A program made the translations under genes and the position numbers. This document shows positions 7,670 through 55,316 of a stretch of 64,000 nucleotides of DNA, piece after piece. Numbering within the stretch: the first letter of the stretch is position 1; each line of letters opens with the position of its first letter. Source of the stretch: Lama guanicoe (Eukaryota); NCBI GenBank assembly GCA_013239625.1, contig MU053559.1, positions 3,226,607 to 3,290,606 of the forward strand, written 5' to 3'. The notes below the pieces were generated by a model. That model saw only the letters and a list, made by a program, of their open reading frames with translations. It had not been told where the DNA came from and did not search any database.

Positions 7670-8253
7670 TTCTTCTTAGATGAAAAGCTACTGTTGGTTT
7701 ATCTTTAGAAATACAAATTTACAAGTTGAACAGTCACTGACTTTACAAACTTAACAACAAACTATATGAGTTATAGAATTCCTATAATAACAAAAACATT
7801 TGGGGAATAAACGGAACAAATCACCTAGCTCACTTTCAAAATTCAACATTCCTTGCTGTCTTTTTTCTTTAAAAGACAGGTAGGAGGGTGACTTTATTTG
7901 CTAACTACTCAAAAATGCAGGCTGCAGAGAACGGGGTTTGGATTAGCAAACTTGAGCCCGATGGAACTCTTTCTTATTTTACCGGCTATGCTGGCTGGCA
8001 CAATCGGGCTTGGAAGGCAAACCCCTGATGACATCAACCAGCAGTTCCCCTCAGCCCTCCTCCCATCCCAGTGCACCGCAGCCTACCAGTCACAAGAAGT
8101 CTTCTGAAGAGGTTTTGAGGAAAACATCTTGTCCTGGTTTTCTCTGTTCCACGGGGCTTGCCGAACATATCCTTGACAGGCAGAGTTCAAACCGAGTCTG
8201 TTGTCAGGCTGCTGGTCTCCCTTTCCTGGAAGACTCCTGACTGTGCCCTCTGT
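7670..8253 (-). other. Putative 3' UTR of the TATDN2 retrogene
   Basis: Follows the stop codon. Minus-strand AATAAA at 7898-7893 is followed by an A-rich stretch (~7870-7861); a second GATAAA-like end lies near 7700. Confidence 0.5.
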
Positions 8254-10098
8254 TTAAATATTATAGAGGTTAGTAGTGTTCTTGCGTAAGGTGGCCAAGA
8301 TGTGGGAGACTGGCTGATCTTTGATTTTGGCAATCTCCCGAATGGTATGCAGGGCCAGGCCTGGGTGGGCAAACTGGCACAGGCTCTTGGGAACACCACG
8401 AGGGAGGAAGTAGGGAGCATCTGTCTCCACGATGATTCTTTCCAGCGGGATCTTCTTCAGAGCCTCCCGTACGTCCCAGGCAGAAGAGTAAGTCAGGACA
8501 GCCGTGAAGCCCACAGACATGTTGGGGAAGTACTCCAGAAGGGGCTCGATGACTGAGTAATTGCCAGTGAAGCAATGCCTGTGGATCTTGTAATCAGGGG
8601 GCACAATTTTTTTCATGATGCTCAGCAGATCTTTGTCAGCTTCTCGGCAGTGGATCACCATGGGCTTCTTTAGAGACATGGCCAGCTGCAGCTGTCTCTC
8701 AAATATCTTGTGCTGCTGAGGGACAGGTGTGGTGCACTTGTAAGAGTAATCCAAGCCAATTTCTCCAAAGGCTATAGCCTTGGGGTGCTGTAGGGCTTGC
8801 AAAATGCTTCTCTCTTGATTCTCATTGTAGTAACGTGCAAAATGAGGGTGACAGCCGAAGGCCCCCCAGATCAGATCCTCTTTCAGCAGCTCCTCCCATA
8901 GGCCATCCCTTAGTGTGCGAGGATCACAGAAATCAGAGATGCAGCCGTGAAATTCCTTAGGGAAGGAACGGCTATAAATTTTTCTGAACTTTTCAAAGGT
9001 TCCTTTGAAAGACAGCTTGGAGTAGAGCATGTCCAAGTGACAGTGGGTGTCGATGAAACCCTCCTGCCGGCTCTGCTCCCATTGGCTCTTTGGCCGGGAA
9101 TAAGACTTAGAATCTCCCCAAGGACTTGACGGTAGCTCCTCTCGGAGTTGCTGTGTCCACTCCTTCACCTTTGCTTTTGAACTTCTGGAGAAGCAAAGTG
9201 AATGAGGATTTGGAGACTGATCTTCCCCTGCCGCCTTCAGGTCTCTGGACCAGTCTGGGGAGCGCACTGTAGACCTGAAGGAAAAATCCCTCCAGAGGCT
9301 CTGGCTGCTCGACACTGCGTGGAAGCTGCTGCCGCTGCTGCTGCCCAAGGACGGATATAAAGGAAGCGTGGAGCTGCTGGTCCAGGAGCTGCCAGGGTTC
9401 TGCCAAGGACCACCGTACAAATTAGGCCAGTACGTGGCCTGGTCAACTGTGAAGGATGAAGGCGCTGAAATACTGGAGAAGCTGGGTGGGAGTGGCTTCT
9501 CCTGAGGTAATGTGAATGAGAAAACGTCACCCACATCAGGCCAGCCACTTCCTGAAGAAGCGCGCTCAGTTACCACACTCCTTTCTGTGTGCTTTTGGTT
9601 TTCTGAAGGATAGTCATGTCTATCTGGAAATTGCAGGGCTGGAGAGACTTTTTCAAAAAGGGATCCCTTTCGGCCACTGAGTAGCGTCTCGTGGGGTTTG
9701 TCCCCGGGATATGTCTTTGCTCTGCTGTCAGAGAAATCGCTGATCCTGATCTTCTCCCCTGTGACCTCTGGGGCTGACGTTTCCTTTATTTGAGGAGAAG
9801 CAGAGAAGGAAAGAGCCCAGGCCGGTCCATCAGGGCTGGGATGCTGCCCTGTGCTCCATGTTGTACTAGTGGCCTCCTCTTCTGGCCTCGATATTTCCAG
9901 GATGCCCTCGATCGCCTTCACTAAGCTCATTGAAGAGTCTTCATCTTGCTGTCCATTGCTCTTTCTCCAGCCCTTGCTTGCTTCCTCAGTCATATTATTT
10001 TGACCCTCGGCTGTGGCTACAAATTCAGAGTCTGTGGAGTCACAGGAACTTTGTTGGAAATGAACCTTAAATCTGTAGGCGTTCTCGTGAGAAGCCAT
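8254..10098 (-). CDS. TATDN2-like: TATDN2-like TatD-family nuclease; intronless retrogene, 614 aa
   Basis: Single uninterrupted ORF. The C-terminal TatD domain (~9060-8257) has DTHCH, GCHPH, GEIGLD, VIHCR, HCFTG and ETDAP motifs. The N-terminus MASHENAY...NNMTEE matches the internal MASLEEEA...NDTIEE segment of TATDN2 as recalled. Strong Kozak context GAAATGG. The parent gene is multi-exon, so this copy is retroposed. Confidence 0.93.
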
Positions 10099-10535
10099 TT
10101 CTTCTAGAAAGAGTTTGGCGGAGCACGAAGGGGATGGCGCTGAGGGGATTCCACAGACGACAGGAACCCCGAGTGCTCAGAATCAGGCAGTCTTGGGAGG
10201 CTGCTCCACCCACACCCGAGCCTGAAATGGGAGGAGGAGGAGCGGGAGGAGGATGAGGAGCAGGAGGAGGGCGAGGAGCAGGAGGAGGGCGAGGACGAAT
10301 TTTCCTGTCAGGATGAGCCCTAGGAAACCTCGGCTTGAAAGTCAGAAGGTCCTCTTTCTGGGCTTTCAGGCACCTGGGGACGCCAGTCCCTCCCGATGCA
10401 GAGCTGTAAGATGGCCGACTGAGGGGAGGAGGGGCGCGTCACCGGACTCCCCAGACGCTTCCGCGTTTGCTAGGGGCCCGTACCGAAGTGCCGCTCCTGT
10501 GGTAAGCGGCCTTGCGCCGCCCACACGGCTGAGGG
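10099..10535 (-). pseudogene. Decayed, frameshifted homologue of the TATDN2 N-terminal coding region (now 5' leader or intron)
   Basis: Minus-strand frames give [36 protein letters not shown] and LEE-M, matching recalled TATDN2 RLKAQKED, GPGVGGAASKGCLIRNTRG, GFLSSGGSP and LEEM, but spread over different frames. An in-frame TGA lies 27 codons upstream of the ORF start and the ancestral ATG is absent. Confidence 0.8.
10230..10295. repeat. (GGA)n-like purine tract with a duplicated gaggagcaggaggagggc unit
   Basis: Visible directly; its position corresponds to the parental poly-Ser codons. Confidence 0.85.
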
Positions 10536-11200
10536 ACCCTCCTCCTTTCTTTCACTCACCCATCGCCGTTCTCAGTGTTTCAGAGATGTCAAAAGTCCGT
10601 CCACTGGGTTTGTGACCGCAAAGCGACTCGGAAAAGTCACAGAGATCCAAGGCGTACTAACGCTCGGTATGGCGTCCGAGCCCTCAGTGAGCTTCTGCGA
10701 CTACCGAGCACTTTCTTTGAGGGCACAGGTCTACTTCCGGGCCATCAAGCTGCTTCCGGGACTAGAAATGTCGATTCGGTTTGGACTATACGGCCCTCGT
10801 GAGATGTCACGACAGGCTTTGAAAAGGCTGCCAGGTGCTTTAGGGACCCCACACAGGGTCCCCTGAGGTGGACCGCTGGTCTAGAGGTCCAGGCTGCCGA
10901 GGGTGTGCAGGAGGGCAGGGCCGAACCCAGCCATGGAAGGGGAGGGGGCAGATGCCGCTCACCACGCCCCTCACCCCAGGNNNNNNNNNNNNNNNNNNNN
11001 NNNNNNNNNNNNNNNNNNNNNNNNNNNNNNNNNNNNNNNNNNNNNNNNNNNNNNNNNNNNNNNNNNNNNNNNNNNNNNNNNNNNNNNNNNNNNNNNNNNN
11101 NNNNNNCTCAAGTCGGTTCCTTCTTACCCACAGCTGCCCCCCGCCCCTCGCGATCCTACATCCCGACCAGCCCGCCACTGGAACCGCCACCATGGCTTTC
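10380..11200 (-). promoter_or_regulatory. CpG island / candidate promoter of the retrogene
   Basis: High GC and CpG density; ETS/GABP motifs ACTTCCGG (10733-10740) and CTTCCGG (10753-10759); YY1-like AAGATGGCCG (10408-10417). Confidence 0.7.
10981..11106. other. Assembly gap (126 N)
   Basis: Run of n bases. Confidence 1.
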
Positions 11201-16930: not shown

Positions 16931-18462
16931 ATCTTACCTGGAATGTTCACTCAACACAAATATGACAACATTCTCGTAGTGGATTTAGCTAACTTTCTAC
17001 CTGGAATCAGGCCAGATACATTCCCCAAGAGAGCAGCTGAAGATAGGACCATTTTGGAATGAAGCCCCAAGGTGCCATTTTGAAGGGTATAGATCTCTGG
17101 GCTCACTAGATTCCTAGAAGCTGTTCTGGTAAAGTCAGGGCCTGGTCAATATTTGTAATTGATCCATTCATTTTGAATACAATTATTTCACTAACTAAAG
17201 CTCATTTCTCATATTCTTTATGGTGATGAATAAATCCTCTTCTGTTGATCAGAGATAAATGACTGAGGCATTTTTGTCAGCCACTTCTGAAGTGTGGGCT
17301 TCCGATAGAAATTTGCTAAACAATCCTGGAGCGTGTGTTTCTAATTAGGGTAACTGGCCACCCCTAGAGGGTAGATTGCACCTAACAGACTTACTCACAT
17401 TAATCATGTTGTCTGTGTTGCTTTAACATGGTGTTACAACATATGCACAATTAACTTTTGCAACTTGAATTATAAAAATTGAACCAAAAGGAGAGCCAAG
17501 GAAATGTTAAAATGGAGCTCTTATGAAGCCTGTGCCCCAGGTCCAGCTTGAAATGGTAGCCTAAATCTACTGTTCCCTCCATTGTCCTTAATTACCATGT
17601 CTTTCTAAGTGTGTGTGAGCAGGTCGCTGTGTTGAAAGTGATTCTAAAGGTTAAAGATATGTATTATTCATACAACATGGCACCCGAACCTATGGAAGCT
17701 AATTCAGCTGATCTTCAGCTGAAGTTGCAGTCTTCTGGTTCAACATGGGAGAAAAATGCACTGTGTTATACATACCGAGAGGCACGGTTTTCCAAAGTAG
17801 TTAAGGAATTTTCAAGGATATCTTTGACTCTGATTTTTTTACTGTAACTACTTTAGAATCCACCTCTCCTAATGTCTACCCCTCTCCCACACCAACACAC
17901 CCAATAAGATAAGACTGGGTCTAGCACTGAGCTAGGCTTTTTGAGGTTACTGAAGAAGTATAGGGTGGGGTCTCCAGTGCATTGGAAGAATTTCAGCCCT
18001 GCGTGTTTCAATTGCCTCAAGGCAAGCAGTCAGCAGGACCAGAAGTCAGAATAATTTTGTCGGAGAACCAGGGTAGCTTTGTGTTATTTTTAATGAGAAA
18101 AAAATGACAGACTCATATTTGTCTTCTGGAAAAGAATATTATTTTCTCTCTTAACACATACAGAATCCCACTGTGAAATTCCAAGGACAGGCGCTAGTTC
18201 AATTTATGGTAGAGCTGAATGATGGATTTATTGCTTGAATATAATTTCCTCATTCTGACCAGAGTGATGAAAATATAAAATGATCTTTATATATTGTAAC
18301 CTAGATTGTATATCCATTCTCACAGCTGATGTGTAGAATGTCTTCTTGCAAAAATTTCCTCAATTTTTTCTTTACATTAACAAAACATATACAGGCAGTA
18401 GCTTTATTGATTTTAAGTTTGCTGAATTTTTTTTCACTTCTTACTTTCTGTGATTCCAACAG

Positions 18463-18613
18463 GTATTATCTTTTGATGCCTATTTGGAAGATGAAGTGCC
18501 TGATAAAAGGCAAGAAAACTATAGAATTAGACGCTATAAAATCTACTTCTACCTTGAAGATGACACAATTCAAGTAAATGAACCAGCATTGAAAAACAGC
18601 GGATTGCCTCGAG
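18463..18613 (+). CDS. EFHC2: EFHC2 coding exon (~exon 3; DM10-1), 151 bp
   Basis: ccaacag|GTA...CGAG|gtatct; translates VLSFDAYLEDEVPDKRQENYRIRRYKIYFYLEDDTIQVNEPALKNSGLPR(G); phase 0->1. Confidence 0.96.
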
Positions 18614-20349
18614 GTATCTAAAGCAGAGTTATAGTTCTTTTACTTCTAACTCCTGCCTGTATATACTGTCTTTCTCTGGCTTTTTAAAAGACCCCATACT
18701 CCTTTTGGCAATGGTGAGTATAAATGTATTGTTAGCTCGTAGTTATTGAAGGTGACTTATCAGCTTTCTACCCCACCACCCCCCACCGCAACAGTGGCCA
18801 CTCACTCTTCTGTGGCAGCCTTGTCTCCTTTCCCATGCTGCCAACTCTCCTGTGTCTTTGATTTTTTCCTCCAAACTCTTTGGTCTTTCCACCATGACCA
18901 TATTACTTCCTTCACAGTACCCTCAGCGGAAGACAGAAGACTGTTCTCCACCGCCACTTCCAGATTGGGATTCTCTCTCCTTTCTTGAGTTCACTGCCAT
19001 TTGCTTCAATTATCTCTCATCCTCATCCCTATTAAGTATACACTGTGATGGTGCTTCCAGAGAGGGCCATTGTTCCTTCGCCCCACATGTGCCAGTCAGC
19101 TTTATCCACATTCCCCTTCCACCAGATAAGCGTTAACTCTGTCATGTGGCCTCCAGAGATGCTAACCCTCGCTTGCATTGGTAGAAGTGTGGCAGAGACA
19201 AAGGGAGGTGACTGATATCTTCTGTGTGTGCTGGGAGTCCTTTACATGGGATTCCCATGTAATGGAGTTCTGGAGTTTATGGAGTTTGTAATGGAGTTTA
19301 TGCTGAGTTCTGGCTGCCTCGTGGGGCAGCAGCCATGATGGTGAAAGGACTGGAAGTTTGTCATGTGTAGGGCAGAGTAGTGAAAAGGGATATTTGTCTG
19401 GAGGGGAGACTCAGGTGTGCCTGATAAATGTCTTACAACATCTAAAGGGCTGTCATGTGGAGGAGGGATGACCTAATTTTCAGTATCCTCAAGGACAGGA
19501 CCTAGGGAGTCGAAATTCAGGTCGATAAGAGGAGTAATTTGCTGGCACAGAGGTGCAGGCAGAGAGGTTCACACACTTAAGAGAAGGTACAAGTGGATGG
19601 AAGGGCCACCCTGCCCAGATCCTGGGGTATGCAGGGGTCCTCTTGCTCTCTTTCTGTTGCATTGACCTTTCCTGATAATAGCGTGGTTTGAAGACCAGAG
19701 CTGAAGTTCAAGAAAGACCACAGGCAAAAGGGGCCTGAGGCTCATGGCACACACTTACTCTATTGGAAAGATGTAGTGACCAGTGGACCTGGCCAGAGCT
19801 GTAGCTTGCCAGTAAGCCTGCTGAATAGTCATGGCCTTTATTTGCGTTTCTTAAGCAAAGGACATATGGGGCCAGAATGGGGGTCACCAATGAAGGAGTG
19901 GCCGGATTAAGGCCTCATGAATATTGAGTACTCATGAATATTTACTGCCTCATATATATTTAGTGTTTCATGAATATCTAGAGCCCAGGTGCCTCATGTA
20001 GATTTAATACATTTTTAAAATTAGTTATCTCTTGGTCCTTCCATCCCTGTCTTTCTATGATTAACATATATATGCTCCAAGTACTATCAAATTATTATTT
20101 AAGACATCTTACAATTTTCTGCCTACGGTGAATAAACTTTGCTTACTACTTATCTGGGCCCAGTGCCTCCACATTAATATACCACCATGGGTTCCAGGGG
20201 GAGAAACAGCAATTTTAGGACCTTAGGTCTCTGAGTATAATGTTATGATGAATCACTATGCAAAGGACTTCCTTCAGTGCTTGTGAGATTGGGGTTTTTC
20301 TTAGAGCGTGGCTTCATGATGTCTGGATGATTAATTTGGAGCCAGTCGG

Positions 20350-27293: not shown

Positions 27294-28158
27294 ACAGGGT
27301 TCAGCAGTGTTTGGGTAAGTTGGCTGGTATGATGTGGTGTAGTTGGTTGGTACACTCATCTAGTTAGGGATGGCTAATTACCATCTGTGGATACTTGGGG
27401 ACCCTGGGTCCATGTTCTCAAGAGAAGTGAGTGGGCACTATAGGGCTGGAAGTAGAAAATGGGATGAGATCCAGAACCTTTAGCCCAGAGCACGGGCTAA
27501 AACTGATGCCTCTGATTATCCTCACTTCGTGGGGGTGGTTGGGTGGAGGCAGACACAAGCTATAGAGGAAGGAGGGAGAAGAGTTTTGCAGAGAAAAGAA
27601 GACTCCAAGAAGCTTCAAAGCAGCATTAAATCATTCGTGCTTATAGATGCTGTAAATCATGGTGTTGGCATCTACCATAGTGAAGTTTATTAGCTGATTT
27701 TTTTCAACCGAGTGAGTGCACTTCTGTGAGCACTCTGCTTTGGGGCCTTAGTTCCTTGTTTAGTGTGCTCACTTTGAGTGCTAATGGGTGAAAGCGAGCG
27801 GGCTGGTTTTGGGAAAAGACATGATGGCAGTGTCTGGTACATTAGGTTACTCTTGTTTATCCCCCTTCCACCTTCCCTCCTGCCCTAGCCTTTATGGTTT
27901 ATGAAAGTTCTTCCCTAGCACCACTTGGGCAACTCTTTAACAACATGCAGGGCTGATCAAATAACTCTGGGCCTCAGTCGTCTCAGCCCTCTCTGGCACC
28001 CTCAGAGTTTGAACATGCTGATGCCACTGCCTCCAAGAACCAGCCCTTTGCCCACTTCACTGAGGTGGGAAAGGCTTCAGGGTTATTAGAAAGATGTTCT
28101 AGGATCTCTTTCTGGTTATCCACACGATGAAACAATTGTGTTTTATTTCACACCCTAG

Positions 28159-28382
28159 GAACTTCTATCCGGCGTCACCGGATTTCTCTCCCACCTCCGG
28201 ATAAGGATCAGTTTTATACTGTGTATCATTTCAATGTCGGCATAGACGTTGTCTTTTATGGCCGGACGTTCAAGATTTATGACTGTGATACATTCACAAA
28301 AAACTTTCTGAAGAAAATAGGAGTCAAAGTAAACCCGCCGCGACAATGTCCAGAAGATCCTTACCTGAAGTTACGGAGAGAG
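28159..28382 (+). CDS. EFHC2: EFHC2 coding exon (~exon 4), 224 bp
   Basis: ccctag|GA ACT...AGA GAG|gtaggt; TSIRRHRISLPPPDKDQFYTVYHFNVGIDVVFYGRTFKIYDCDTFTKNFLKKIGVKVNPPRQCPEDPYLKLRRE; phase 1->0. Confidence 0.96.
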
Positions 28383-29124
28383 GTAGGTTGACCTGTCCAT
28401 GAGTTATTGTCTTCAGGGTGAGAATCCCTGCGGAGTGTCACTGAAGGATATTGGTAGTCCTGACGCAGAAGTGAAAGGACTTGGGGGGCCATGGTCCCTG
28501 GGATTGTCCTGTTTTCCTTGGGGCTAGAGGGAAGGCTGGGTGGTGGCTTCGGTGCAGGACTCACTGTCTGCCCTCATCCCCACTTGTCTCCGTGGAGAGC
28601 CTCCCTTCCAGGCAGTAGGAGTCTTCAGTGAGCCGCCCACATGGGATAGTTTCTAAGAGCCCATGATTGGTTTTGTGGTCACTGACAGTGTAAGAGTGGA
28701 GCCCACTTACCTGGCTTTTCTTTTCCTATTTTAGTTGCCTGATTCTGGGAAAATCTTTGCTTCTGTGCTCCTGATTTGCTGAACCACGCTTTGGGTGCAC
28801 CTTTTTTTTTTCTTTCTGGGGACTCCCAACTCCCTTTATGGTGATATCAGATGCAGAGATGTTCCAGAGCGAGAAGGGCCATGATTCCGGTGTACCTCCA
28901 TGATGACAAGATGCTGTCTTCAAAGTCTGATCCCAATTAATAGCAGTAGTGTAGTCTTTCCAAATGCCCAAATTTTATGTTTTACAAGGAGACTCTGACG
29001 GGCATTGCCCCAGAAGGGCAAGTGTCATGTGGAAGGTCACATACACACCCGTCTTCTTGCTGGGAGTTGCTCTAATCTCTTGCTTCTTGCCATGATTTTT
29101 CATCATTATCATTTGTTTCTCTTT

Positions 29125-29365
29125 TCTCTTTTTATTGAAGTATGATTATATACAGTAAAATACACAGAAATTAAGTATACAGCTTGATGGGTCTGAACAA
29201 ATGCATGCACCCATGTAATCCACAACCAGAACCATAATATTGAATATTTCCATTCCCCCATAGAGTTCCCGCCTGCCTTTTTCCAATCTATCCTTCTCCC
29301 CATCCAGGGATAAACACTGTTCTCATTTGTATCCCTATAGATTAATTTAGTCTCATTTTGATTGT
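29125..29365 (-). mobile_element. L1 3'-end fragment
   Basis: 'tttttattgaagtatgattatatacagtaaaatacacag...aagtatacagcttgatg'. Confidence 0.75.
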
Positions 29366-30721
29366 TTCTAAATCTTGTAATTAATTTCTTTGCAGAAAGA
29401 TAATATAAAATTTAGAATAAAATTCTCCTTTGATTCTGCTTTGATCTCTTGTTAAAAGCTGCATGTAGGATCATTCATCTCTTCGTGCCTCCTAGCCCCA
29501 GCAGAATTGTCCTTCAATGTTGTAGGCATGCAGCCCTCCTGAGAAATACATATATATTGTTGATCCCGGACTATCTTAAGGTGAAATCCCTGTGTCATTA
29601 AACTTGTGTGTATTGGTGTGCAAGGAGATTTATGGCCTGGCTTCATTTTAATTTTTTTTTTTCTAAATGCCCTAGATGAAAGGGACTCCATAAATACAAA
29701 GTCTTTAGAACCAGCAGAGAGAACCTAAAAGAAGTGAATCTGTATAAATTACGACTCTTTGCATCTAGCTACGCTCTTCATTGACACTTGGTATTATATG
29801 ACAGTGATAGTGAATGATGATGCACTATATGAAATACATAGAACGCTCTGTGATTTCATAGGTTCATAAAGAAAAAAAAATCTTTTGTTCCGGGAATCAA
29901 GAATAATTCCCAAGAACAGTCAAGAAATGTTTTAAATAGTTTCCTTTCAGATTAGGAGAATCATTTTAGCATTTATTCCCTCAGAGAGAAAGCTCTTCAA
30001 TAAATATAGAAATCTGTGGAAAATTAGGAGTTTAATAAGAGGCTTTTATATTGACTTTTGTGCATTTACTTCTCCAGTGTTTGCTGCCTTGAAATGTAAA
30101 GTTAAAATTAAACAATTTAACTTGAACTGAAAAAAAGCCCCAATGGTATATGGTCAATATTGCATTTCTTAGAGGCCTTATCATTGCCAAAGAAACCTTT
30201 TTCAATGGCTGAAAATAGAGATCCCATAATTTCATGTAGATATCAAGGATGGGACTGAAGAGTTTCTGGAAGGCCATGATGTCTCCCCCACTGTCTGGGG
30301 ATAAGTCTGCACCTAGACTGCCCTGGACAGAGACACAATTTTGAGAATTTACAAGTAAGATTACAAAACCCGACGTGGGGCCACATCTTCCGTGGTAGTG
30401 AGCACTTCCTTTTATAACGACTGCGTGAGGCCACATGAGATAGAGGAGGGGCAGTTTTGCTCCAAAGCAGGTCTGAGAATATGCGGATAGGGAAGAGTTG
30501 TGCCAAGAAGACTGCAGAGGCAGTGGTTCCTGGGTTGGGGTATGGAGCCCTGGCAGTGGTTCTGTGCTGATTGGGAAGCTCTCCATGGCATTTGAGTTCC
30601 TCAATATCTGTAAAGCTTTTGAGCAAAATAAAACCTTGAATATATTTCTTCCCTTTTCCCTTTAAAAAATCTTTGGGTGAGTTAAGAAGGATAGGTAGAT
30701 AGGAATTATCAGTGAAAAGAA

Positions 30722-30955
30722 TTTTTTGGTTGAAATATAATTAACGTAGAGTCAGATGTATACATCTTAAAAGCCTACACATAGACCAGATTTGAAAAAT
30801 GCATGCAATTTAGTAAACAACATGAAAATCAAGATAGAGAATATTTCCATCACCCCAGAGAGCCCTCTTGTCCCCCTTTCCGATCAATCCTCTACCCAGA
30901 GGCAGTAACTATTCTCATTTCTGTCACCATATATTAGTTTCATCTGTTCTTCAAC
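30722..30955 (-). mobile_element. L1 3'-end fragment
   Basis: 'ttgaaatataattaac...aatcaagatagagaatatttccatcaccccaga'. Confidence 0.7.
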
Positions 30956-31246
30956 AAGAATTTTAAGTCTTTGAGAAAAGTCAGTTTCCAAAAAATTATA
31001 GAGGTATTTTTTAGCATATTAAAATAATGTTTAATGCAAAGCTTCCTGATACTTGATTGTCTGTATTTCTAAGGTTGAAACTGATTACATATGCGTATCA
31101 TGTATGTTGTTAGTTGAAATTTTAAAAAGACCACAGAGTAGTCTATGGAAGAGATACCTAAGATATCTTTATGTTCCTTTACTGCTTGCATCCCAGAAAT
31201 GACTATGGAAAATCTCAACTATCACTGACCTTTTCTCCATCTGCAG

Positions 31247-31498
31247 ACGCTGGATTGCGTGGAGCCCTTACGTCCCTACGAGTCCTTCGACACTCGGAAA
31301 CAGTTCCTCAACTATGATAGGAAGGTTCTGCGTTTCTTCTGCCTGTGGGATGACTCAGGCTCAATGTTCGGGGACCGTAGAGAACTCACCCTGCTTTACT
31401 TTCTGTCTGATGATACTATCGAAATCAGAGAAACGTTGCCACATAACTCAGGAAGAGATCCTGTGACAGTGTTCCTCCAGAGGAGAAAGCTACCTAAG
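31247..31498 (+). CDS. EFHC2: EFHC2 coding exon (~exon 5; DM10-2), 252 bp
   Basis: ctgcag|ACG CTG...CCT AAG|gtgagc; TLDCVEPLRPYESFDTRKQFLNYDRKVLRFFCLWDD...SGRDPVTVFLQRRKLPK; phase 0->0. Confidence 0.96.
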
Positions 31499-32104
31499 GT
31501 GAGCGATGGGCAGAGGACCGCTTTCCGAGTTTGCTTTCCGAGTGGGCTAAAGACTCAGGTCACTCACTGTCTGGAATGTCATGTGTTATGACTGCGTGAT
31601 GACAGGTTACCATGTAGTAGTGCAAGTGTTTAGAAAGCTTCCATTTTGTGCCCTCTATTAATATACATCTATGAAAGTAATACAGAGGATATGACAAATT
31701 GGAATTGGAGTATTCAGAGCTTAAGGCAAGTAAAGGAAAAAAGCCAAATGCAAGAGAACTACCTTTTCATCATTTAGTTCACAGTGAGCCTTATGAAGGT
31801 AAATGACTCTCTGGTTAAGAACTGCTCGTGGCCTTGGGCAGGGCACTGGCCTCTGTAGCCTACTGAGGAGACCCCAGCCTATTGGTCTGGGTTGTGAATA
31901 CACACATAATGCATGCACAAAGACATGCACGGGCATGTGCACACACAAGTATACACGCAGGAGGGAGTCTTCTGAGGGTAGCCACTAGTCACCAACTAGC
32001 CACTGGCTAGCAACAGTGATAGCTTTTGCATTTTACTATTTAAAAAGAGGTGTCAGACTGATTCTACACATATTTATGGCTATTAGAGAGCTAATGTAAC
32101 TTGT

Positions 32105-32300
32105 GTATGGCAGAAACAGCACAGAGACAGAAGGCCTGGGTTAGAATTGTGGGTCTGCCACTGAATAGCTGTGTGACCTTGGGCAAGCCATTAACCTCTC
32201 TGAGCATATTTCCCTATCTCCAAAATGCAATTAACTAGGCTTCCCTCCTGAGGTGACTATAAAGATTGAGTGAAATAATATAGTAAAAAGCACTATCAAA
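32105..32300 (+). mobile_element. MIR SINE
   Basis: 'tagctgtgtgaccttgggcaagccattaacctctctgag'. Confidence 0.75.
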
Positions 32301-33665
32301 AGACCTGTAGACACCTCTGAGGACGTGTGAAAACATCAAGGCCTATTTCCGGCTCTATGCAGTATTTTGTTTCTTATTTGGATCAAGTATTTTTCAACTT
32401 AATTCTTAGTGCTGCTGGTAAGATTACTGTAATGCTCATTTCTGAGGCAAACCACCCCTGGTTATTTGGTTATCGCAGGAGACTCTCCCAGATTCTCTGA
32501 GGCTACTGCCAGAAGTCCTGCTATGTCGCTTGCTTGCAGGGGGTGGGGCAGGATTTGTCCCAGAGTGAACCCTGGGGTATTCACAGCGAGTGGCCAGGAG
32601 GTGCCAGGGGAACCTGTTTTTAGAATGGCTTTGAAAACTGAGTAGAAAATAATAATGGCACACCTGACATTTGCGGCATTCCCTGACATCAGTTGCTTCA
32701 TTTATTCATGCATTCAACAAATGTCTGTTGAGTGTGAACTGTGTGCCTGCTCTGGGGTTACAGTAAGAAGGAGAATAGAGTGAGTCCTGCTTCATGGAGC
32801 TCCCATTCTCATGGGGGAGAGATACAGTAGCAGTGAGTGTTCCCTTGACACAGCATCCTTTGAGAAAGCCAAAGAGTACTGTTGTTGAGGTTAGATGAAA
32901 TAACTGAGAAGATAAATTCCTAGCCCCAAGTCCTGCAGCTAGAAAGTGGCGAAGGGAGAGTTTGCGCCCAAATGTACTATTTTTCTATGTGACACGGCTT
33001 ACTTGTACTCCATACATCATAAGTTCACACATTTAGACTTAGATTTTACATCACACGTATCAGGGACGATTTTGATTTCTCATCTGTATGGAATAAACCA
33101 GTCACTATCGGTTTATATAAGTTAGTTAAGATATTTCCTGCCTGGACCACCTCAGTGCATGTGGAACTGAGGAGTGGCCTGGCCTGCTCCAGGCCACAGT
33201 TTGTGTTAGAGGCCAACTGCACCCCATGGTCCCGGCTACCTCACCACACCGCCTCTCTCTGCCAGCAAGTGCTTCCTTGCTCAGGAGCAGGCAGGGTGCT
33301 AAGTGAGTAAAGGGAAAAAGGCAGGGTAGGGTGTCTTCCTCAGGGTGTTTTGTAGTTTTGTAGCTTAGTGAAGAGAAAAGGTGACTTGCTGATGAGGCAA
33401 TTGGAGAACCACCGTAAGTGGTTGAACCCAGCAGTAGGTGCTATGGAAGTTTGGACTGGGGATAGGCCAGTAGGATGGGAGAGGTCAGGGGAAAAGATGG
33501 GGCTTTATCAGGGCCTTGAAAGATGGGTGGAATGTAGACCAGCCCACAAGGGGTGAGGAAGCATGGGGAAAGGTGGCTGGAGTATGCAGCCTGTCCTTGA
33601 GATGGCAGAGAAGAACTATATGGTGCCTCTTACCACGTGTGCTCCTCAGCAGGACCATGTTTGTG

Positions 33666-35684
33666 GTTTTTTTGTTACACATGTATTCGTTGTCACATTC
33701 TTTTTCACTGTGAGCTACCAAAAGATCTTGTATATATTTCCCTGTGCTATACAGTATAATCTTGTTTATCTATTCTACATATACCTGTCAGTATCTACAA
33801 ATTTTGAACTCCCAGTCTGTCCCTTCCCACCCCCCTCCCCACTGGCAACCACAAGTTTCTGTTCTATCTCTGTGAGTCTGTTTCTGTTTTGTATTTATGT
33901 TCTTTTTTTTTTTTTTTTTTTTTTTTCCACTTAGTAATTTCTTTTTTTTTTTTTTTTTTTTTTAAATGACATTCTCCAGGGACATCCATGTTGCTACAAA
34001 TGTCATTATGTTGCCATTTTTATGGCTGAATACTATTCCATTGTATAAATATACCACCTCTTCTTTATCCAGTCATCTATTGACGGACATTTAGGCTGTT
34101 TCCATGTCTTGGCTCTCATAAATAGTGCTGCTATGAACATTGGGGTGCAGGTGTCTTTTTGAAGTAGGGTTCCTTCTGGATATATGCCCAGGAATGGGAT
34201 TCCTGGGTCATATGGTAAGTCTATTCCTAGTCTTTTGAGGAATCTCCATACTGTTTTCCACAGTGGCTGCACCAAACTGCAGTGTAGGAGGGTTCCTTTT
34301 TCTTCGCAGCCTCTCTAGCATTTGTCATTTGTGGACTTTTGAATGATGGCCATTCCGACTGGTGTGAGGTGATACCTCATTGTAGTTTTGATTTGCATTC
34401 TCTGATGATTAGTGATATTGAGCATTTTTTCACATGCCTGTTGATCACTTGTATTTCTTCCTTAGAGAATTGCTTGTTTAGGTCTTCTGCCCATTTTGTT
34501 ATTGGGTTGTTTGTTTTTTTTTCTTATTAAGTCGTATGAGCTGCTTATATATTCTGGAGATCAAGCCTTTGTCAGTTTCATCCTTGGCAAAAATTTTCTC
34601 CCACTCCGTAGGTTGTCATTTTGTTTTGCTTATGGTTTCCTTTGCTGTGCAGAAGTTTGTAAGTTTCATTAGGTCCCATTTGTTTATTTTTGCTTTTACA
34701 TCTATTGCTTGGGTAGACTGCCCTAGGAGAACATTTTTGAGATGTATGTGAGATAATGTTTTGCCTATGTTTTCTTCTAGGAGGTTTATTGTATTTTGTT
34801 TTATGTTTAAGTCTTTGATCCATTTTGAGTTTATTTTTGTGTATGGTGTAAGGGAGTATTCTAGCTTCATTGATTTACATGCTGCTGTCCAGTTTTCCCA
34901 ACACCATTTCCTGAAGAGATTATCTTTATTCCAGTGTATATTCTTGCCTCCTTTGTCAAAGATTAGTTGACCAAAAGTTTGTGGGTTCATTTCTGGGCTC
35001 TCTGTTCTGTTCCATTGGTCTGTATGTCTGTTTTGGTACCAATACCATGCTGTCTTGATGACTGTAGCTCTATAGTATTGTCTGAAGTCTGGGAGAGTTA
35101 TTCCTCCAGCCTCTTTCGTTTTCTTCAGTAATGCTTTGGCAATTCTAGGTCTTTTGTGATTCCATATAATTTTTATTATGATTTGTTCTAGTTCTGTGAA
35201 ATATGTCCTGGGTAATTTCATAGGGATTGCATTAAATCTGTAGATTGCCTTGGGCAGCGTGACCATTTTAACAATATTGATTCTTCCAATCCAGGAACAT
35301 GGGATATCTTTCCATTTTTTAAAGTCTTCTTTAATTTCCTTAATCAGTGGTTTATAGTTTCCTGTGTATGAGTCTTTCACCTCCCTGGTTAGATTTATTC
35401 CTAGGTATTTTATTACTTTGGGTGCTATTTTAAAGGGGATTGTTTCTTTACTTTCTTTTCCTGTTGACTCATCGTTAGTGTAAAGAAATGTAACTGATTT
35501 TTGTACATTATTCTTGTAACCTGCTACCTTACTGAATTCTTTGATTAGTTCTAGTAGTTTTTGGGTGGACCTTTTAGAGTTTTCTATGTATAGTATCATG
35601 TCATCTGCATATATTGACAATTTTACCTCTTCTTTTCCAATTTGGATCCCTTTTTTTTCTCTCTGTTGCCTCATTGCTGTGTCT
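33666..35684 (-). mobile_element. Relatively young 5'-truncated L1 (ORF2 C-terminal part + 3' UTR)
   Basis: 352-aa ORF2p fragment (35674-34616) with the RT YADDM motif; further ORF2 pieces to 34033 (CTPMFIAALF, WYIYTME); imperfect 15-bp TSD at 33651-33665 and 35685-35699. Confidence 0.95.
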
Positions 35685-35744
35685 AGGACAATGCTTGTGT
35701 TTAACGGTCATCCCCCACATCTTGACTTGGTTTTTATCTTCCAG

Positions 35745-35858
35745 TATGGCCCCCCTGGAGTCTATCAACCAGGCCAGTTAGCAGATCAAACAGTTCTCAA
35801 TATGTATGGTGGCTATTCAGTGAACCGAGTGTACAGATACCTGCTGGATAAATACAAG
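35745..35858 (+). CDS. EFHC2: EFHC2 coding exon (~exon 6), 114 bp
   Basis: ttccag|TAT GGC...TAC AAG|gtaagg; YGPPGVYQPGQLADQTVLNMYGGYSVNRVYRYLLDKYK; phase 0->0. Confidence 0.94.
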
Positions 35859-36240
35859 GTAAGGACCCTCACATTTTATTACTGTTGCCAATGTGACTTC
35901 CCTGGAACCTAGAAAGGAGGGTGAGTTACATATCCTTCTCCTGGGAGATTGATTGTGAATGAAATCAATGAATGTGTAAATATGTGTGTGATACTGCTGT
36001 TTATCAGTAATAAACATGCTCAAGTGCACATATAAATATACACATTGAATTGCCATTTGGTAGCACTATGTAGCTTAAAGAATGTTTTAAAATGTTAATA
36101 TTGAGTGGTTGTCTTTTGATTTAAGAAATTTGCTTATAAATGATATAATTTTTTGTTAATTATCTTTTTTCCTTTGGGAGGGAGTGCCAAGGTCTCTGGA
36201 GGGTCTCTGGTGCCAATGTCATGTTCTTTTGTTTTCTTAG

Positions 36241-36379
36241 CCAGAAAAATTAGAGCAAGAGTTTTACAAAGATAGTGACCTGTCCATAGGAACCACCATC
36301 AACGTGTGGGGAAGGAAAGTGCTCCTCTGTGACTGTGACAAATTCACGAAGACTTATTATAAGACTAAATATGGAATTG
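36241..36379 (+). CDS. EFHC2: EFHC2 coding exon (~exon 7), 139 bp
   Basis: tcttag|CCA GAA...ATT G|gtaagt; PEKLEQEFYKDSDLSIGTTINVWGRKVLLCDCDKFTKTYYKTKYGI; phase 0->1. Confidence 0.95.
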
Positions 36380-36489
36380 GTAAGTGATACATCTGTCAAT
36401 TAGAAAGTAACATTTAAAACTTAGATCTTTGTTCCCTAGTTAGGATTGATTGTGCTTTTTTGAGTTTCAGATGCTAAGCTCATAAGAGT

Positions 36490-36700
36490 TACCATTTATT
36501 GAGTTATTTGCTAACTACCGGGCATTTATTGTCTTATTTATTCCTGACAAACAACTCTAGAAGGGTAGGCTCATTATCCCCACTTTAGAGGTGAGGAAAC
36601 CATGGCTTCAAAGGGGCTTACTTGTCAAAGGTCACTCAGCAAGTAAAGGGTGAGTCAAGACTTGAACTTGTCCGCCTGATGCCAAAGGCTTCCATTTTCC
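36490..36700 (-). mobile_element. MIR SINE
   Basis: 'attatccccactttagaggtgaggaaac...cttgtcaaaggtcactcagc'. Confidence 0.7.
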
Positions 36701-39700
36701 TTGGTAGCTCTCTGCCTCACTAGAGTATGGGTACATGCTTTGGTCAAGCCATTGAAATGGAAATCTAAATGCTTTTCTTTTCACTGAATTCTTGCTTACC
36801 ACGGTGGATATACTTATTTGAGTTCTCTTGGGGGATTCTCTGGTGCCAGTTTGCTCAACCTTTCCTGGTGAGGCTCAGCCAGGTTTCCAGCTTCTCTCTG
36901 CTTAGCTATCAATTCCATTCAGATCAGGTTAGTCCAGTTCAGAATGAAAACCGGTGATCTATTCAGCAGCTACTGGACACAGGTCATTGCAGTAGACTTA
37001 GGAGTTATGGAGCTGTGTGAGGACTTTCTAGGCTGGAAGGGGAGCAGAGACCTACAGTTATGTTACACGGTGTTATGAGTCGTTGAAGCAGCTGGAGGAT
37101 CTGATGTGAAACCTGAAAAACAAACCCCTCCGTTTGTGAAACCTGCCAGCCAGCTCTGCCCTCCTCCTCGGCTCTCTGCCCCAGACTCCAGGTGCCTGCC
37201 AGTACTTGGCTAAGAGGGGATGGTGCAAGTCGCTGACCTCCCAGATTGGGATTTAGAGCTCGGGTGTGGGAGACTGACTCCCATAGTCCTCTCTGAACCT
37301 TGGAATATTCATATGAACACACTTCCCTAAGTGATCACAGCCTCCTAGAAGACAAGGTGCTTTGTCTCTGGGATGAGACGAGGCTCACCTTACGTGTCTC
37401 GGTGTCCCTACTGCATAGTATTCCTGGCCTCCTGGGAATCTATATTGTGGGAGAAGGCACACAGAGCACACAAAGGGGTTGAAATAAAAAAGACTTTGTG
37501 TCACTCTTCGGTTCATTAAGAGAATTAGTTCCACCACCTCTGCATGCCAGCTTAGTCCAAATGTGTGGGCCCACGGGGCCAAATTGGTAGCCTCTTCTTG
37601 TATTATTTCCTAAAATTAGTCCTCTTTAGTGGACACCGTTGGGCATATTTGTTTTTGGGGCTGAGGGCAAAGGCAGCCAGGACTGTGCAGGTGGTGGCTG
37701 CTGTAGAGAAGCTGCCAGTGACCGTTAGATGGTTTGGAAGGATAATTTGGTCTTTAATAAATGTAAATGCCTGTTTAGAATCAACAAGTCTTCAGTGTAG
37801 ACTTGAAAATTTGAAAAAAATTATATATATATATAATGAGCAGAGAATATATGTATATATTATATAATATATAGTTGTATATGTATAGTAAGTCACTGAA
37901 ACATTTACCTGTGTCCTACTGAAAGGTGACCCTAATACAAAGGATGTGATAAAGGTTCCAAAATATCATATGATCCTTTAAATATTAAGTCCAACATTTG
38001 ATTGATATTTGTCTGTCAGCTTGATTTTGAGAATATAAAGTTTGCATGTGGGAAAATAAACATAGTGCGGGAGAGACATGGTACATTGCTAGTCACTCCC
38101 TGGGTTTGTAGGGGGCTTTCAGAGGCAGAGTAAATTCACTGGTGCGCTCTAGATCTAGCGGTCCTCGGCAAATGTGTCAGCTTCAGGTGCCTTGTGGTCC
38201 ACTTCAGTTGAGCTCTAGTGCTTAATTTCTTCCTGCTCACTTCTTTTGTTCACCCTATAGACTTACTGTATTATATAGAAAAAAAAGTCATGTGTGCCTG
38301 TAAAGCTGATATAACATGAGCATTATGCATTTAAACAGAAAATTATGCAAATGCAAAATTATGATGCATTTTATGGTCATGCTGACTTTTTATATTTCTC
38401 ATAACATATATTAAAATATCCCATTTAACAGACACTATAATTACACAACATTTCTTGAGTAACAACAGTTTACTTAATGTAGCTAACGACTGGAAATTAT
38501 ATCCATGATTCAGGGAGGATGGGAGTGAATCTTCACATTTACTTTTTCTGACTTTTTGGTAATGTTAAATTATTACACTTCGTGTTACTTAGGTAGTTCT
38601 GACATTTTAATTTTGTTTGTAATTCATCTGGTTCTAAAAATTCGTAAGACTGACTACATTTTATACATTATATTTCGGTATCCTTGAAGCCCAAACCAGG
38701 ACAAAGTCCTGGCAATCATTGTAGTCACGTTTCGTTCCTTGTCAGTGACTGTGGTCGGCAGAATACCTGGCGTCTCCACTCTGCAGCACCACAGGAAGGA
38801 GCCGACAGCTGCCAACCACACGGCAAAAGCCCTCCCCGAGAGGAAGCCAGGGGGCGATTTCGAATGCAGTGTGCAGCCTTGGTGCTTTAGTACCTTCCCT
38901 TACCTAATGCCCCAACATGTTTTGGGGGAGAAAAAAGTGGCAGACGGGCTAAGAGAAGGAGTTGGCTCTGGTCCCAAGAAAGGTGCATGAGTAAGCTTTC
39001 TATTTATGGAGAAGCAGAGAGCTTGATAGAATTCCAAGAGATCTATGTAGCCCCGTGTAAAACCCAGTCTGACTCCTAAAAAGATGAGATTCTTTTGTGC
39101 ATCTCAGGATTCTAAAGAGGAGGTCAGTTCTTCCACAAAACAATCCAGTGTGACTCCCCCCGTAGGCAGCCTGGCTATCCCGCTAGCCCCAGCTGGCCTG
39201 CTGGGCTCGAGCGTGTCACTCCCTCATTATTTCACGTGCATGAGTGCGGACTGGCAGATGGAGGCCTGTTGGACTTTCCTGTAGCATGAAGGTTGGAAAA
39301 GGCTCCAGGGGCTCTAGCAGGTGTTTCTTTCACTGAAGGGACAGGGATTTGAATGTAAACCATTCTTACCTAGAATTCCTGTCTTAGGTTATTCTTTGTC
39401 TGTAAGAGGACTTAGCATCGATTCTTAGTGGCTGAGACACCCAAACTAGTAACAAGACCATTCATTCCCATTGTCTTTGAATACTTATTAGGCTGTACTG
39501 ACATTAAGGATGAGCAAGAAACTTAAAGCACCTCTAATTTTGTAGAGTCATTTCTGGCCCTCTCTGAACTAGAAGCAGCAGGGCATCCAAGATGAGAGTT
39601 TAATGATCATTTGAGCAAATCAGCCATCCAACGGTGCAGGGACAGGGGTAGAATTTGCTTCTGGTCTCACCACATGGCCTTGATGGACCTAACAATTTGG

Positions 39701-42543: not shown

Positions 42544-42709
42544 AGAACTTTACCTCGATTTCATGCAAGGCCCCATCTCCTCCAAAAATAGAAAGGAAAT
42601 TTCCACCTTATACCGGCTTTGGTTCTGAAGAGGATTCTCTCCGCTCCTGCATAGGCCTCATGCCCACACCTCATCAGAGGGACTTGAAGAAGTTCATGGA
42701 AAAAGACAG
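42544..42709 (+). CDS. EFHC2: EFHC2 coding exon (~exon 8), 166 bp
   Basis: ttgtag|AG AAC...GAC AG|gtgctt; (E)NFTSISCKAPSPPKIERKFPPYTGFGSEEDSLRSCIGLMPTPHQRDLKKFMEKD(S); phase 1->2. Confidence 0.95.
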
Positions 42710-42889
42710 GTGCTTGAGGGAACCATTATTTGAGTCTGATCTTTCCCAGATGTGTTCGGGGTTTATAATATTGTCCTCATGACAAAACAGATGATACTTA
42801 ATTTATCTCACTTCAAGTCCAGGGACATGTTATATAGCTTTTTAATGAAGTTGATTAATATATAAGTGTTAACAGGTTCTTCAATGCTT

Positions 42890-43760
42890 ATTTTATTTAT
42901 TTTCTTCCAGCTTCATTGAGAAAAAATTGACATACAATATTTGTCAAGTTATAAGTTTAAAATGTACAGCATGATGCTTTGATATATATATATTGAAAAA
43001 TGATCACCACAGTAAGATTAGTTAAGATCCATCACCTCACATAGTTAGAATTTTTTTTTCTTGTGATGAGAACTTCTAAGATTTACTCTCTTAGAAACTT
43101 TCAGATATATAATACAGTATTATTGACTGTAGTCATCATGTTGTGTGTTACGTTCCCAGAACTTATTTATCTTATAGCTGGAAGTTTGTACCTCTTGATC
43201 CCCTTTACCCAATTCCCCCAACCTCCTCACCCCAGCCCCTGGCAACCATAAATCTGATCTCTATTTTTATGAGTTTGGGTTTTTTTTTTTTAAGATTCTA
43301 CATATAAGTGAGATCATGCAATACTTGTCTTTGTCTAACTTATTTTACTTAGCATAATGCCCTCAGGGTCCATCCATGTTGTCTCAAATGGCAGGATTTC
43401 CCTTTTTATGGTTGAATAATACTCCGTTATGTGCATGTGTGTGTATGTATGAGATATATAAACATATATATATATATATATATATGTTTCTTTATCCATT
43501 TATCTGTCAATGGATATTTTGATTGTTTCCCTGTCTTAGCTATTGCAAATAATGCTGCAGTGAACATGGGGGTACTGATATCTTTTTGGAACAGTGCTTT
43601 CATTTCTTTTGCATATATATCCATAAGTAGAATTGCTGGATCATATGGTAGTTCTATTTTTAATTTTTTGAAGAGACGCTATACTGTTTTCTATAGTGGT
43701 TACACCACTTTACATTCCCACCAATAGAGCAGAAGTGTTCTCGATTCTCCACATGCTCAC
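42890..43760 (-). mobile_element. L1 (L1MA-like) 3' end
   Basis: Antisense 3' UTR plus ORF2 tail peptide (STPMFTAALFAIAK). Confidence 0.85.
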
Positions 43761-43904
43761 ATTGAGTGGTTATCTTAATGTGTCGCCTGGAAACCCTTCA
43801 AGCCATCTTATCCCCAATTTTATATTGCCTTTCCATGTATATGCATATATATATGCCTTTCCATATACATCTCTCCTCAAGATGGTCCCTAGGAAATGGT
43901 GTAG

Positions 43905-44240
43905 ATTAGAGGTCAACAAACTTTTTCCGAAAGAGTCAGATAGTAAATATTTTTGGCTTTGCAGGCCACACGGCCTCTGTCACAACCACTTAGCTCTGCC
44001 GTTGTAGCATGAAAGCAGCCACAGTGGGTAAACAAATGTGTAACTACATTCCAGTAAAACTTGTTTATAGACATCGACATTTGAATTTCATATAATTTTT
44101 ACATATCACAAAATACTCTTCTTTTGATTGTTTTCAATCTTTTAAAAATGTGCAGACTATCCTTAGCTCACAGGCCATACAAAAGCAGGTGGCGGAATGT
44201 ATTTGGGCCCAGAGGCTGTATACAGTTTACCTACCCCTGG
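43905..44240. mobile_element. MER58-like hAT-Charlie element
   Basis: 'gaggtcaacaaactttttccgaaagagtcagatagtaaatatttt' ... 'agtttacctacccctg'. Confidence 0.8.
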
Positions 44241-50701: not shown

Positions 50702-50803
50702 CCAGAGCATACCTTTTGCAGGGTTTTTGTTGTTGTTGTTACATGCATAATGTGTGGAAGATTACTTGTATAATGTTATAATCCTCATTTTTCTTCCATT
50801 TAG

Positions 50804-55281: not shown

Positions 55282-55284
<3 letters not shown>

Positions 55285-55316
<32 letters not shown>

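Follow-up and report, generated by a model that had tools for sequence, protein, structure and literature searches.

A TATDN2 retrogene antisense in an intron of EFHC2 in the guanaco probably encodes a second TATDN2-type enzyme

PGK2, UTP14B and the X-recruited retrogenes are classic testis-expressed retrogenes of mammals. Here we describe a retrocopy of TATDN2, a gene for a nuclease of the TatD family, that has kept an open reading frame (ORF) inside an intron of EFHC2 in the guanaco, Lama guanicoe. It lies in a stretch of 64,000 nucleotides (the window; assembly GCA_013239625.1, contig MU053559.1, positions 3,226,607 to 3,290,606 of the forward strand), for which a reading of the letters alone, the original prediction, had proposed an old and still coding copy of this kind. 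With a readable frame and a protected nuclease part in camelids and many other mammals, the locus is probably a second TATDN2-type enzyme and not a dead copy, and we put the probability that it is a protein-coding retrogene kept by selection at about 0.75.

Human TATDN2 is described in PMC10711561 as an R-loop-resolving ribonuclease (RNase) needed by BRCA1-deficient cells, a Mg2+-dependent 3'-5' exo- and endonuclease whose substrates are RNA hairpins and the RNA strand of R-loops and whose R-loop binding depends on its N-terminal disordered region. In PMC12709183 the gene is presented as a guardian of the germ-cell genome in fish, and in macaque and mouse as expressed in spermatogonia and early meiotic cells, with little expression later. 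For the human retrocopy TATDN2P1, two peptides in one ORF were reported together with a testis-specific tandem mass tag (TMT) signal and RNA-seq, and the authors suggest an independent function in testis (PMC5834625, PMC8062694). The peptides and the testis-specific RNA and protein make it doubtful that the copy died in humans, as had been predicted. Our literature search returned no paper describing a conserved retrogene clade, its age, its position in EFHC2 or selection on it; the papers on TATDN2 retrocopies were about TATDN2P2, except for PMC8062694, which names TATDN2P1, and TATDN2 and EFHC2 occurred together in gene lists only.

Processed origin and position within EFHC2

The ORF listing of the window's minus strand gave an uninterrupted frame from ATG to TAA of 614 codons plus stop (Table 1). 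The guanaco genome searched for TATDN2-like loci comprised 2.05 Gb in 55,231 contigs, and match counts in it are lower bounds. Six matches from 16 scored candidates fell into two loci only, the window locus (contig C1178) and a multi-exon gene (contig C4216), and no further TATDN2 copy was found among these candidates beyond that parent. Mapping of the parental gene, guided by the TATDN2 protein of Camelus dromedarius, gave six coding exons with GT-AG borders that encode 742 amino acids (aa), and all five of the gene's intron positions fall within the continuous ORF, at residues 11, 169, 464, 506 and 568 of the retrogene product. Because all five parental introns are absent from this continuous frame, the ORF is a processed retrocopy of TATDN2. 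Consistent with this origin, 363 of 607 aligned amino acids are identical between the ORF and its own parent (73% nucleotide identity), and the DNA homology to the parental mRNA extends past the ORF both ways, 5' to position 10767 and 3' to position 8111 in the 3' untranslated region (UTR). UTR homology is present on both sides, and a short A-rich remnant follows an AATAAA signal; a target-site duplication is expected to have been erased at such an age.

The frame does not begin where that of the parent does. Its start Met is the counterpart of an internal parental Met at about residue 125, with identical flanking nucleotides, and a MAS start motif is common to 27 of the 28 members of the retrogene clade described below. 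Measured against the full disordered N-terminal region of TATDN2, the product falls short, as it begins at the equivalent of that Met and its 345 residues before the nuclease domain are strongly diverged. Because the first ~124 parental residues are missing, the predicted protein counts as a truncated paralogue rather than as a full TATDN2.

The host gene was identified from its DM10-domain exons, which lie on the plus strand of the window and account for 6 of the 11 DM10 matches in the genome. The best relatives of one of these exons were EFHC2 proteins (197 matches among 207 candidates), the Camelus ferus EFHC2 being 90% identical. With this Camelus ferus protein as the query, the exons for aa 76-583 of EFHC2 were mapped to 18457-56332 of the window on the plus strand, and the exon for aa 14-79 was found 19.6 kb before the window start. 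With these exons on either side, the retrogene lies antisense within a 38-kb EFHC2 intron. We also noted a DM10/EFHC2-like fragment elsewhere in the genome (contig C4372, 427003-427170, plus strand) with 71% identity to EFHC2 aa 76-131 and two TAA stops, probably either a dead piece of sequence or a diverged exon from a different DM10 gene.

The original prediction was therefore right about the anatomy of the locus, namely a 1845-bp intronless ORF without stops or frameshifts (an ATG-to-stop frame lacking five of five parental introns), a parental TATDN2 that is a multi-exon gene (six coding exons in the same genome), and antisense nesting between the EFHC2 exons for aa 14-79 and aa 76-128. 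Human TATDN2P1, which we take to lie inside human EFHC2, is the probable orthologue of the window retrogene, judging by its chromosome position. It is placed at chrX:44,290,573 (PMC10645931), and EFHC2 is given as X-linked, at Xp11.3 in human (PMC4481314), in agreement with the predicted X-linkage of EFHC2 and with the predicted position of the human copy in the Xp11.3 region (44.29 Mb). From the position of human EFHC2 and from the chromosome-sized contigs of relatives, we infer X-linkage in the guanaco as well.

Constraint on the reading frame and the nuclease domain

Residues 349-613 of the ORF product cover the complete profile of the Pfam family TatD_DNase (PF01026), all 253 positions, with a score of 207.3 bits (cut-off, 27) and E=3.3e-61. 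The window protein has the full set of metal-binding residues, namely H352 and H354 of the N-terminal HxH, E446 of GE.GLD, H483 of HCR, H508 of HCF, and E558 and D560 of ETDAP. Apart from D560, none of them varies among the 28 clade members, and the same holds for the HxH motif together with three other His residues. In human TATDN2, E593 and E705 are required for R-loop RNase activity, which is abolished by their mutation (PMC10711561), and their equivalents, E446 and E558, are kept in all 28 clade members. The equivalent of human D707, D560, is kept in 25 of the 28; the Asp is replaced by Asn in P0014 (Ovis canadensis), P0049 (Bubalus) and the ruminant-type P0042, while two deer members keep it. 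The human D707 mutant (D707A) is reported to retain partial activity (PMC10711561). Of two TATDN2-specific cysteines, C509 (the C656 equivalent) is kept in 28 of 28 and C391 (the C538 equivalent) is present in the window; both were aligned to Macaca C538 and C656, the identity of Macaca and human numbering being deduced from equal length and matching residue types.

Sequence matches in the PDB at E<=0.001 numbered 16, the best being E. coli TatD (2.9e-27). An AlphaFold2 model of the domain was of moderate quality, with a predicted local distance difference test score (pLDDT) of 74.4, a predicted template modelling score (pTM) of 0.76, and 53 of 279 residues below 50. The 15 best listed Foldseek matches of this model were TatD-family or TatD-like chains, led by 1XWY (E=6e-16, template modelling (TM) scores 0.75/0.80), and the top matches included 4P5U, 6L25, TATDN1 8EFG and TATDN3 2Y1H (TM 0.70-0.84). 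By profile, residues, nearest relatives and fold, the window protein belongs to the TatD family and to its TATDN2 subfamily.

The open frame itself is hard to reconcile with neutrality. The share of substitutions in the ORF that would create a stop is 3.9%. For half of the synonymous divergence (dS) to the parent, 0.31 substitutions per site, the probability that no stop arises is 2.5e-10; with assumed indel rates, the probability of an open frame under neutrality falls to 3.6e-30. The length of the ORF is not due to chance, in keeping with the predicted improbability of 614 open codons in the absence of selection. The pairwise Nei-Gojobori ratio of nonsynonymous (dN) to synonymous divergence from the parent was 0.43 overall, 0.15 in the TatD domain (269 codons) and 0.69 in the N-terminus (338 aligned codons), so that the purifying selection that had been expected, with a ratio away from 1, is borne out for the nuclease domain. 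The excess of synonymous over nonsynonymous divergence in the TatD domain was significant in the pairwise comparison (Fisher p=1.3e-21), and also if all nonsynonymous changes and only half of the synonymous changes are assigned to the retrogene branch (p=3.3e-5). Of the 44 amino acid differences from the parent in this domain, 32 fell on the retrogene side, 5 on the parental side and 7 were unclear; because 32 of 44 polarise to the retrogene side, the low ratio is not merely a reflection of the parent's own conservation.

A neutral sequence would change evenly along its length. Between the window protein and its Camelus bactrianus counterpart, 41 of 345 N-terminal residues differ versus 5 of 269 TatD residues (Fisher p=7.8e-7); the parental pair of the camelids differs at 11 of 337 N-terminal and 0 of 269 TatD residues. 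Across the 161 TatD columns with a conservation of 90% or more, the window has a single private change, a minimum that it shares within the 28-member clade.

Age, orthologues and rival explanations

The ORF and its own parent differ by dS=0.62 and dN=0.27 over 607 aligned codons (Nei-Gojobori). Because of this dS, the copy is old and not recent, and the old retroposition that had been predicted is confirmed on this point; a recent insertion, considered as a separate possibility, was ruled out by the same value. The best protein match of the ORF was a 614-aa Camelus bactrianus protein with 93% identity, and parental TATDN2 proteins reached 51-60% over the full query (among the best 120 of 581 matches). 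All named matches within the best 120 of 581 were TATDN2. When the N-terminal 345 residues alone were used as the query, only the Camelus cluster was found, with one protein at E<=0.001 among 7355 candidates, since the word prefilter does not cope with so diverged a region.

The taxonomic spread of the clade was drawn from these best 120 of 581 protein matches, to which the ORF and its own parent were added. In a FastTree phylogeny of the 122 rows, 28 rows formed one clade with a Shimodaira-Hasegawa (SH)-like support of 97, consisting of 14 cetartiodactyls, 9 bats, 4 carnivores and 1 rhinoceros. An IQ-TREE phylogeny of 56 rows, from which 66 of the 122 were left out (more parental rows, mostly rodents, isoforms and unlabelled assemblies), placed the 28 retrogene rows on one side, with an SH-like approximate likelihood-ratio test (SH-aLRT) support of 98, and 27 parental rows on the other (support 99), the latter from sloth, armadillo, elephant, aardvark, primates, rodents and laurasiatherians. 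Branching within the retrogene clade matches the species tree. At a minimum, the copy predates the divergence of the four laurasiatherian orders. They are unrooted, with no non-placental TATDN2 in the set, and their topology may reflect either a split that predates the placental radiation or outward attraction of a fast clade (long-branch attraction). A 584-aa TATDN2-like protein of Sciurus carolinensis (P0118, on a contig of 131,720,120 bp) sits on a long branch between the retrogene and parental clades. All of its catalytic residues that were checked are in place, and it may represent either the retrogene's rodent orthologue or a copy of separate origin.

The position in EFHC2 appears to be shared. 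In nine species, namely warthog, hippopotamus, black rhinoceros, dog, giant panda, bighorn sheep, Molossus nigricans, black bear and gray whale, the retrogene protein and EFHC2 lie on identically sized contigs, and in the gray whale their locus tags are consecutive (J1605_005703 and J1605_005704). Because the two proteins share a contig size in nine species, the data support a single ancestral insertion in EFHC2.

Annotated 614-aa models exist in three Camelus species, and models of about 607-632 aa, all named putative deoxyribonuclease TATDN2, are found in Camelus, cetaceans, hippopotamus, deer, buffalo, rhinoceros, dog, panda and bats. Intact members of the clade number 28, including 3 that are flagged as low quality, and 3 further intact Camelus entries come in addition. 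The ORF is thus kept in close relatives, as shown by the three Camelus models, and in distant ones, as shown by the 28-member clade, in line with the original prediction. Its description of the gene as unrecognised held in part, as gene models of this length exist in the three Camelus species and similar ones in more than 20 other mammals under the parent's name, while the exact window protein is absent from a collection of 15 billion proteins and the clade is undescribed in the literature searched. Ten of the 28 clade models have 50-368 extra N-terminal residues before the shared MAS start, e.g., P0093 (979 aa), P0014 (773 aa) and P0011 (754 aa), and one extended model also has a second Pfam domain, PF18697; the extra residues are either mis-joined gene models or real upstream exons.

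Several observations weigh against a retrogene that is still functional in the guanaco. The N-terminal dN/dS is close to neutral, and the retrogene clade has evolved 2-4 times faster than the parents, with a mean pairwise identity of 79% versus 95% in the TatD domain and 51% versus 78% in the N-terminus. The low-quality entries are three bat models flagged LOW QUALITY PROTEIN, which may contain frame errors, and a protein search shows only annotated, hence intact, copies, so that losses escape it. The collection of 15 billion proteins lacks the exact window protein. In comparison with Camelus, 29 amino acid changes are derived in the window and 8 in Camelus, with 9 unpolarised (binomial p=0.00075), and several of the former hit N-terminal sites that are conserved in both clades (Y59L, S187P, S193F, E201K and G141S). 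This extra change in the window's lineage fits relaxed constraint as well as positive selection, and for any lineage-specific dN/dS, a neutral divergence of 0.015-0.03 was assumed in place of a camelid synonymous rate. As for transcription, there is a hint in four RNA-labelled sequencing runs, which share 43% of the sampled 31-mers of 7900-10600 and belong to two studies (the label of one is "reproductive system metagenome"). Because the locus sits inside an EFHC2 intron, these words might come from EFHC2 pre-mRNA or from DNA, and that the share is 0.43 in each of the four could also be explained by a related species (~97% identical) or by coverage of just one portion of 7900-10600.

It is possible, although unlikely in our view, that the gene was functional for most of its history and is now relaxed in the lamine lineage, as a pseudogene at an early stage in which no mutation has so far disrupted the frame. 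The 29 to 8 asymmetry, which the parental gene lacks (end branches of 0.0057 and 0.012 in IQ-TREE), the changes at conserved N-terminal sites and the absence of the exact protein from the collection would all be accounted for, and a short neutral period could pass without a stop, as the probability of an open frame is still 0.11 at 0.01 and 0.013 at 0.02 neutral substitutions per site. However, the TatD domain was spared, with 4 window-derived changes in 269 residues versus 25 in 345 N-terminal ones. Over the range of assumed branch lengths, 0.015-0.03, the N-terminal change is at or above neutral and the TatD change is below it, the probability of 4 or fewer changes going from 0.043 (at 0.015) down to <0.0005; at 0.02, 12.5 nonsynonymous TatD changes would be expected, and P(4 or fewer) is 0.005. 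The single private change in the 161 conserved columns and the full set of intact catalytic residues also speak against relaxation. Testis-specific and X-linked genes are often fast-evolving, and the rapid N-terminus might instead be adaptive, with positive selection acting on the targeting region of a germ-line protein that is functional and changes its partners or substrates, most strongly in the lamines. We regard this as a good deal less probable still, even though the 25 polarised N-terminal changes exceed the 11.8-15.7 expected at assumed branches of 0.015-0.02 (P=0.0005-0.018), human TATDN2 needs its N-terminal region to bind R-loops (PMC10711561), and human TATDN2P1 is reported as testis-specific (PMC5834625). 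The excess vanishes at assumed branches of 0.025-0.03 (P=0.14-0.41), and the pairwise N-terminal ratio to the parent, 0.69, is below 1.

That the locus is a neutral processed pseudogene, old or recent, with a chance ORF, or else a cDNA contaminant or assembly artefact, is hardly credible. Most retrocopies are dead, the human counterpart carries a pseudogene name (PMC5834625, PMC8062694), and there is an assembly gap 880 bp upstream of the ORF. Against this stand the dS of 0.62, which excludes a recent copy, the probability of 3.6e-30 for an open frame under neutrality, the TatD dN/dS of 0.15 and the 28 intact orthologues across four orders. An artefact is also opposed by the EFHC2 intron and exons that flank the locus, with the same neighbourhood in other species, and by 14 DNA runs from five organisms that contain 87-100% of the sampled 31-mers of the locus, although 11 of these runs may be the source sample. 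A protein-coding retrogene maintained by selection is therefore the reading that we prefer.

Flanking sequence, proposed function and comparison with known systems

The coordinates of the retrogene, its flanks and the host exons are collected in Table 1.

Table 1. Features of the TATDN2 retrogene locus and the host gene (positions in the window)
Feature	Position	Strand	Basis
TATDN2 retrogene coding sequence, intact and intronless	8254..10098	-	ORF listing, Pfam, parental exon mapping
TatD nuclease domain, aa 346-614; HxH 352/354, E446, H483, H508, E558, D560, C391, C509	8257..9063	-	Pfam, residue mapping, PDB sequence matches, fold, dN/dS 0.15
Ser/Pro-rich fast-evolving N-terminal region, aa 1-345	9064..10098	-	dN/dS 0.69, clade alignment
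Decayed remnant of parental codons ~5-124	10099..10520	-	other frame, in-frame stop, expanded CT-rich low complexity, parental ATG lost
Homologue of parental region 146-370 bp upstream of parental ATG (5' UTR or promoter-proximal)	10544..10767	-	DNA alignment
3' UTR stretch alignable to parental 3' UTR	8111..8253	-	DNA alignment
AATAAA, with A-rich remnant ~25 nt later; candidate retrogene polyadenylation site (putative role)	7893..7898	-	motif, 355 nt past stop
Assembly gap, 126 N, in GC-rich stretch upstream of retrogene	10981..11106	.	run of N
EFHC2 exon, aa 76-128 of Camelus ferus EFHC2; first host exon downstream of retrogene	18457..18615	+	protein mapping
Further EFHC2 exons: 28158-28385, 31229-31498, 35742-35873, 36244-36378, 42534-42707, 50757-50948, 53383-53580, 56213-56332	28158..56332	+	tblastn bounds

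Upstream of the start codon, the retrocopy has decayed, and the frameshifted homologous sequence that had been noticed directly upstream proved to be a remnant of parental aa 5-107, which aligns with 36% identity at 10519..10166 on the minus strand, shifted into another frame and interrupted by an in-frame stop. The match to parental aa 109-150 re-enters the ORF frame at 10149. In-frame stops lie directly 5' of the ORF ATG, and the parental start ATG is gone. A decayed Ser-rich coding stretch of the parent has grown into a CT-rich (CTCCTC) tract relative to the parent at 10099-10320 (minus strand), and this tract yields a spurious 120-aa ORF on the plus strand (10253..10615). Between 7000 and 12000, four overlapping ORFs of at least 100 aa were listed, and two of the three other than the retrogene cross the N gap.

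Farther upstream, the ratio of observed to expected CpG is 0.87-1.04 across 10400-10799 versus 0.08-0.51 in the ORF body, the pattern that a CpG island free of germ-line methylation would leave, and the leader contains just two short upstream ORF (uORF) ATGs, at 10745 and 10563. The stretch with homology to the parental 5' region is a candidate promoter or leader. The assembly gap begins ~210 bp past the last detectable parental 5' homology, and a part of the possible promoter may be absent from the assembly. Just past the GC-rich block, a run of ~22 A (minus-strand reading) at 11335-11355 is likely the tail of a neighbouring retroposed repeat.

In the history that we propose, a TATDN2 mRNA would have been reverse-transcribed and inserted in reverse orientation into an intron of the X-linked EFHC2. 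This would have happened before the divergence of the laurasiatherian orders, probably even earlier than the boreoeutherian split, and the first ~124 parental codons would then have decayed. Translation would start at the Met that matches parental Met ~125, in an initiation context as strong as that in the parent, and give a 614-aa product with a rapidly evolving, putatively disordered N-terminal half and a conserved TatD triose-phosphate isomerase (TIM) barrel in which the set of metal-binding residues is complete. By homology with human TATDN2, this product would most likely be a Mg2+-dependent 3'-5' RNA exo- and endonuclease acting on structured RNA and the RNA strand of R-loops, and by analogy with human TATDN2P1, it would most likely act in the male germ line, expressed from a putative CpG-island promoter of its own. 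With its truncated and diverged N-terminus, its substrate targeting would probably be unlike the parent's. We rate it an even bet that activity and tissue are both right, i.e., that the product is an active RNA/R-loop nuclease in the male germ line. The fullest version, in which a second TATDN2-type nuclease is encoded by a ~100-million-year-old X-linked retrogene, kept across Laurasiatheria and translated in human testis, with a germ-line role on RNA or R-loops, an N-terminus evolving at or above the neutral rate and an adaptive burst in the lamines, is tentative and, taken as a whole, rather doubtful. If true, the enzyme would act, for example, at transcription-replication conflicts in spermatogonia or on post-meiotic structured RNAs, with lineage-specific retargeting.

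Where two genes go under one name, results for "TATDN2" from knock-outs or from expression studies may be confounded in dog, pig, cattle, bats or camelids. The paralogue needs a name of its own, appears to be missing from the protein sets searched for the source species, and offers a natural experiment in which the same catalytic barrel is joined to a truncated, fast-changing R-loop-binding region. The pseudogene label of human TATDN2P1 likewise merits re-examination. The finding is useful for annotation and for the young TATDN2 field and is not surprising to a retrogene specialist.

Compared with the parental TATDN2, the retrogene product has the full TatD domain (~82-84% identity) with the metal-chelating residues and the two TATDN2-specific cysteines, preceded by a long Ser-rich region. 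It differs in that the retrogene is intronless, lies on another chromosome inside EFHC2, lacks parental aa 1-124, has an N-terminal identity of only ~41% (exon matches) and has evolved 2-4 times faster. Human TATDN2P1 is likewise an X-linked TATDN2-derived retrocopy, located in the chromosome band of EFHC2, and the human copy yields protein (PMC10645931, PMC4481314, PMC5834625, PMC8062694). The RefSeq/GenBank models named putative deoxyribonuclease TATDN2 are orthologues that form one clade with the window protein and share the same start Met in 27 of 28, but they bear the parent's name, leaving the paralogue without an identity of its own; 10 of the 28 have at least 50 extra N-terminal residues, and three ruminants have Asn at D560. 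Like the classic retrogenes, the window locus is an intronless copy of a broadly expressed multi-exon gene, apparently maintained by selection over tens of millions of years, with a human counterpart that is testis-specific. Unlike them, it moved from an autosome (in human) to the X chromosome, lies antisense in a host intron, and has only its C-terminal catalytic domain under tight constraint.

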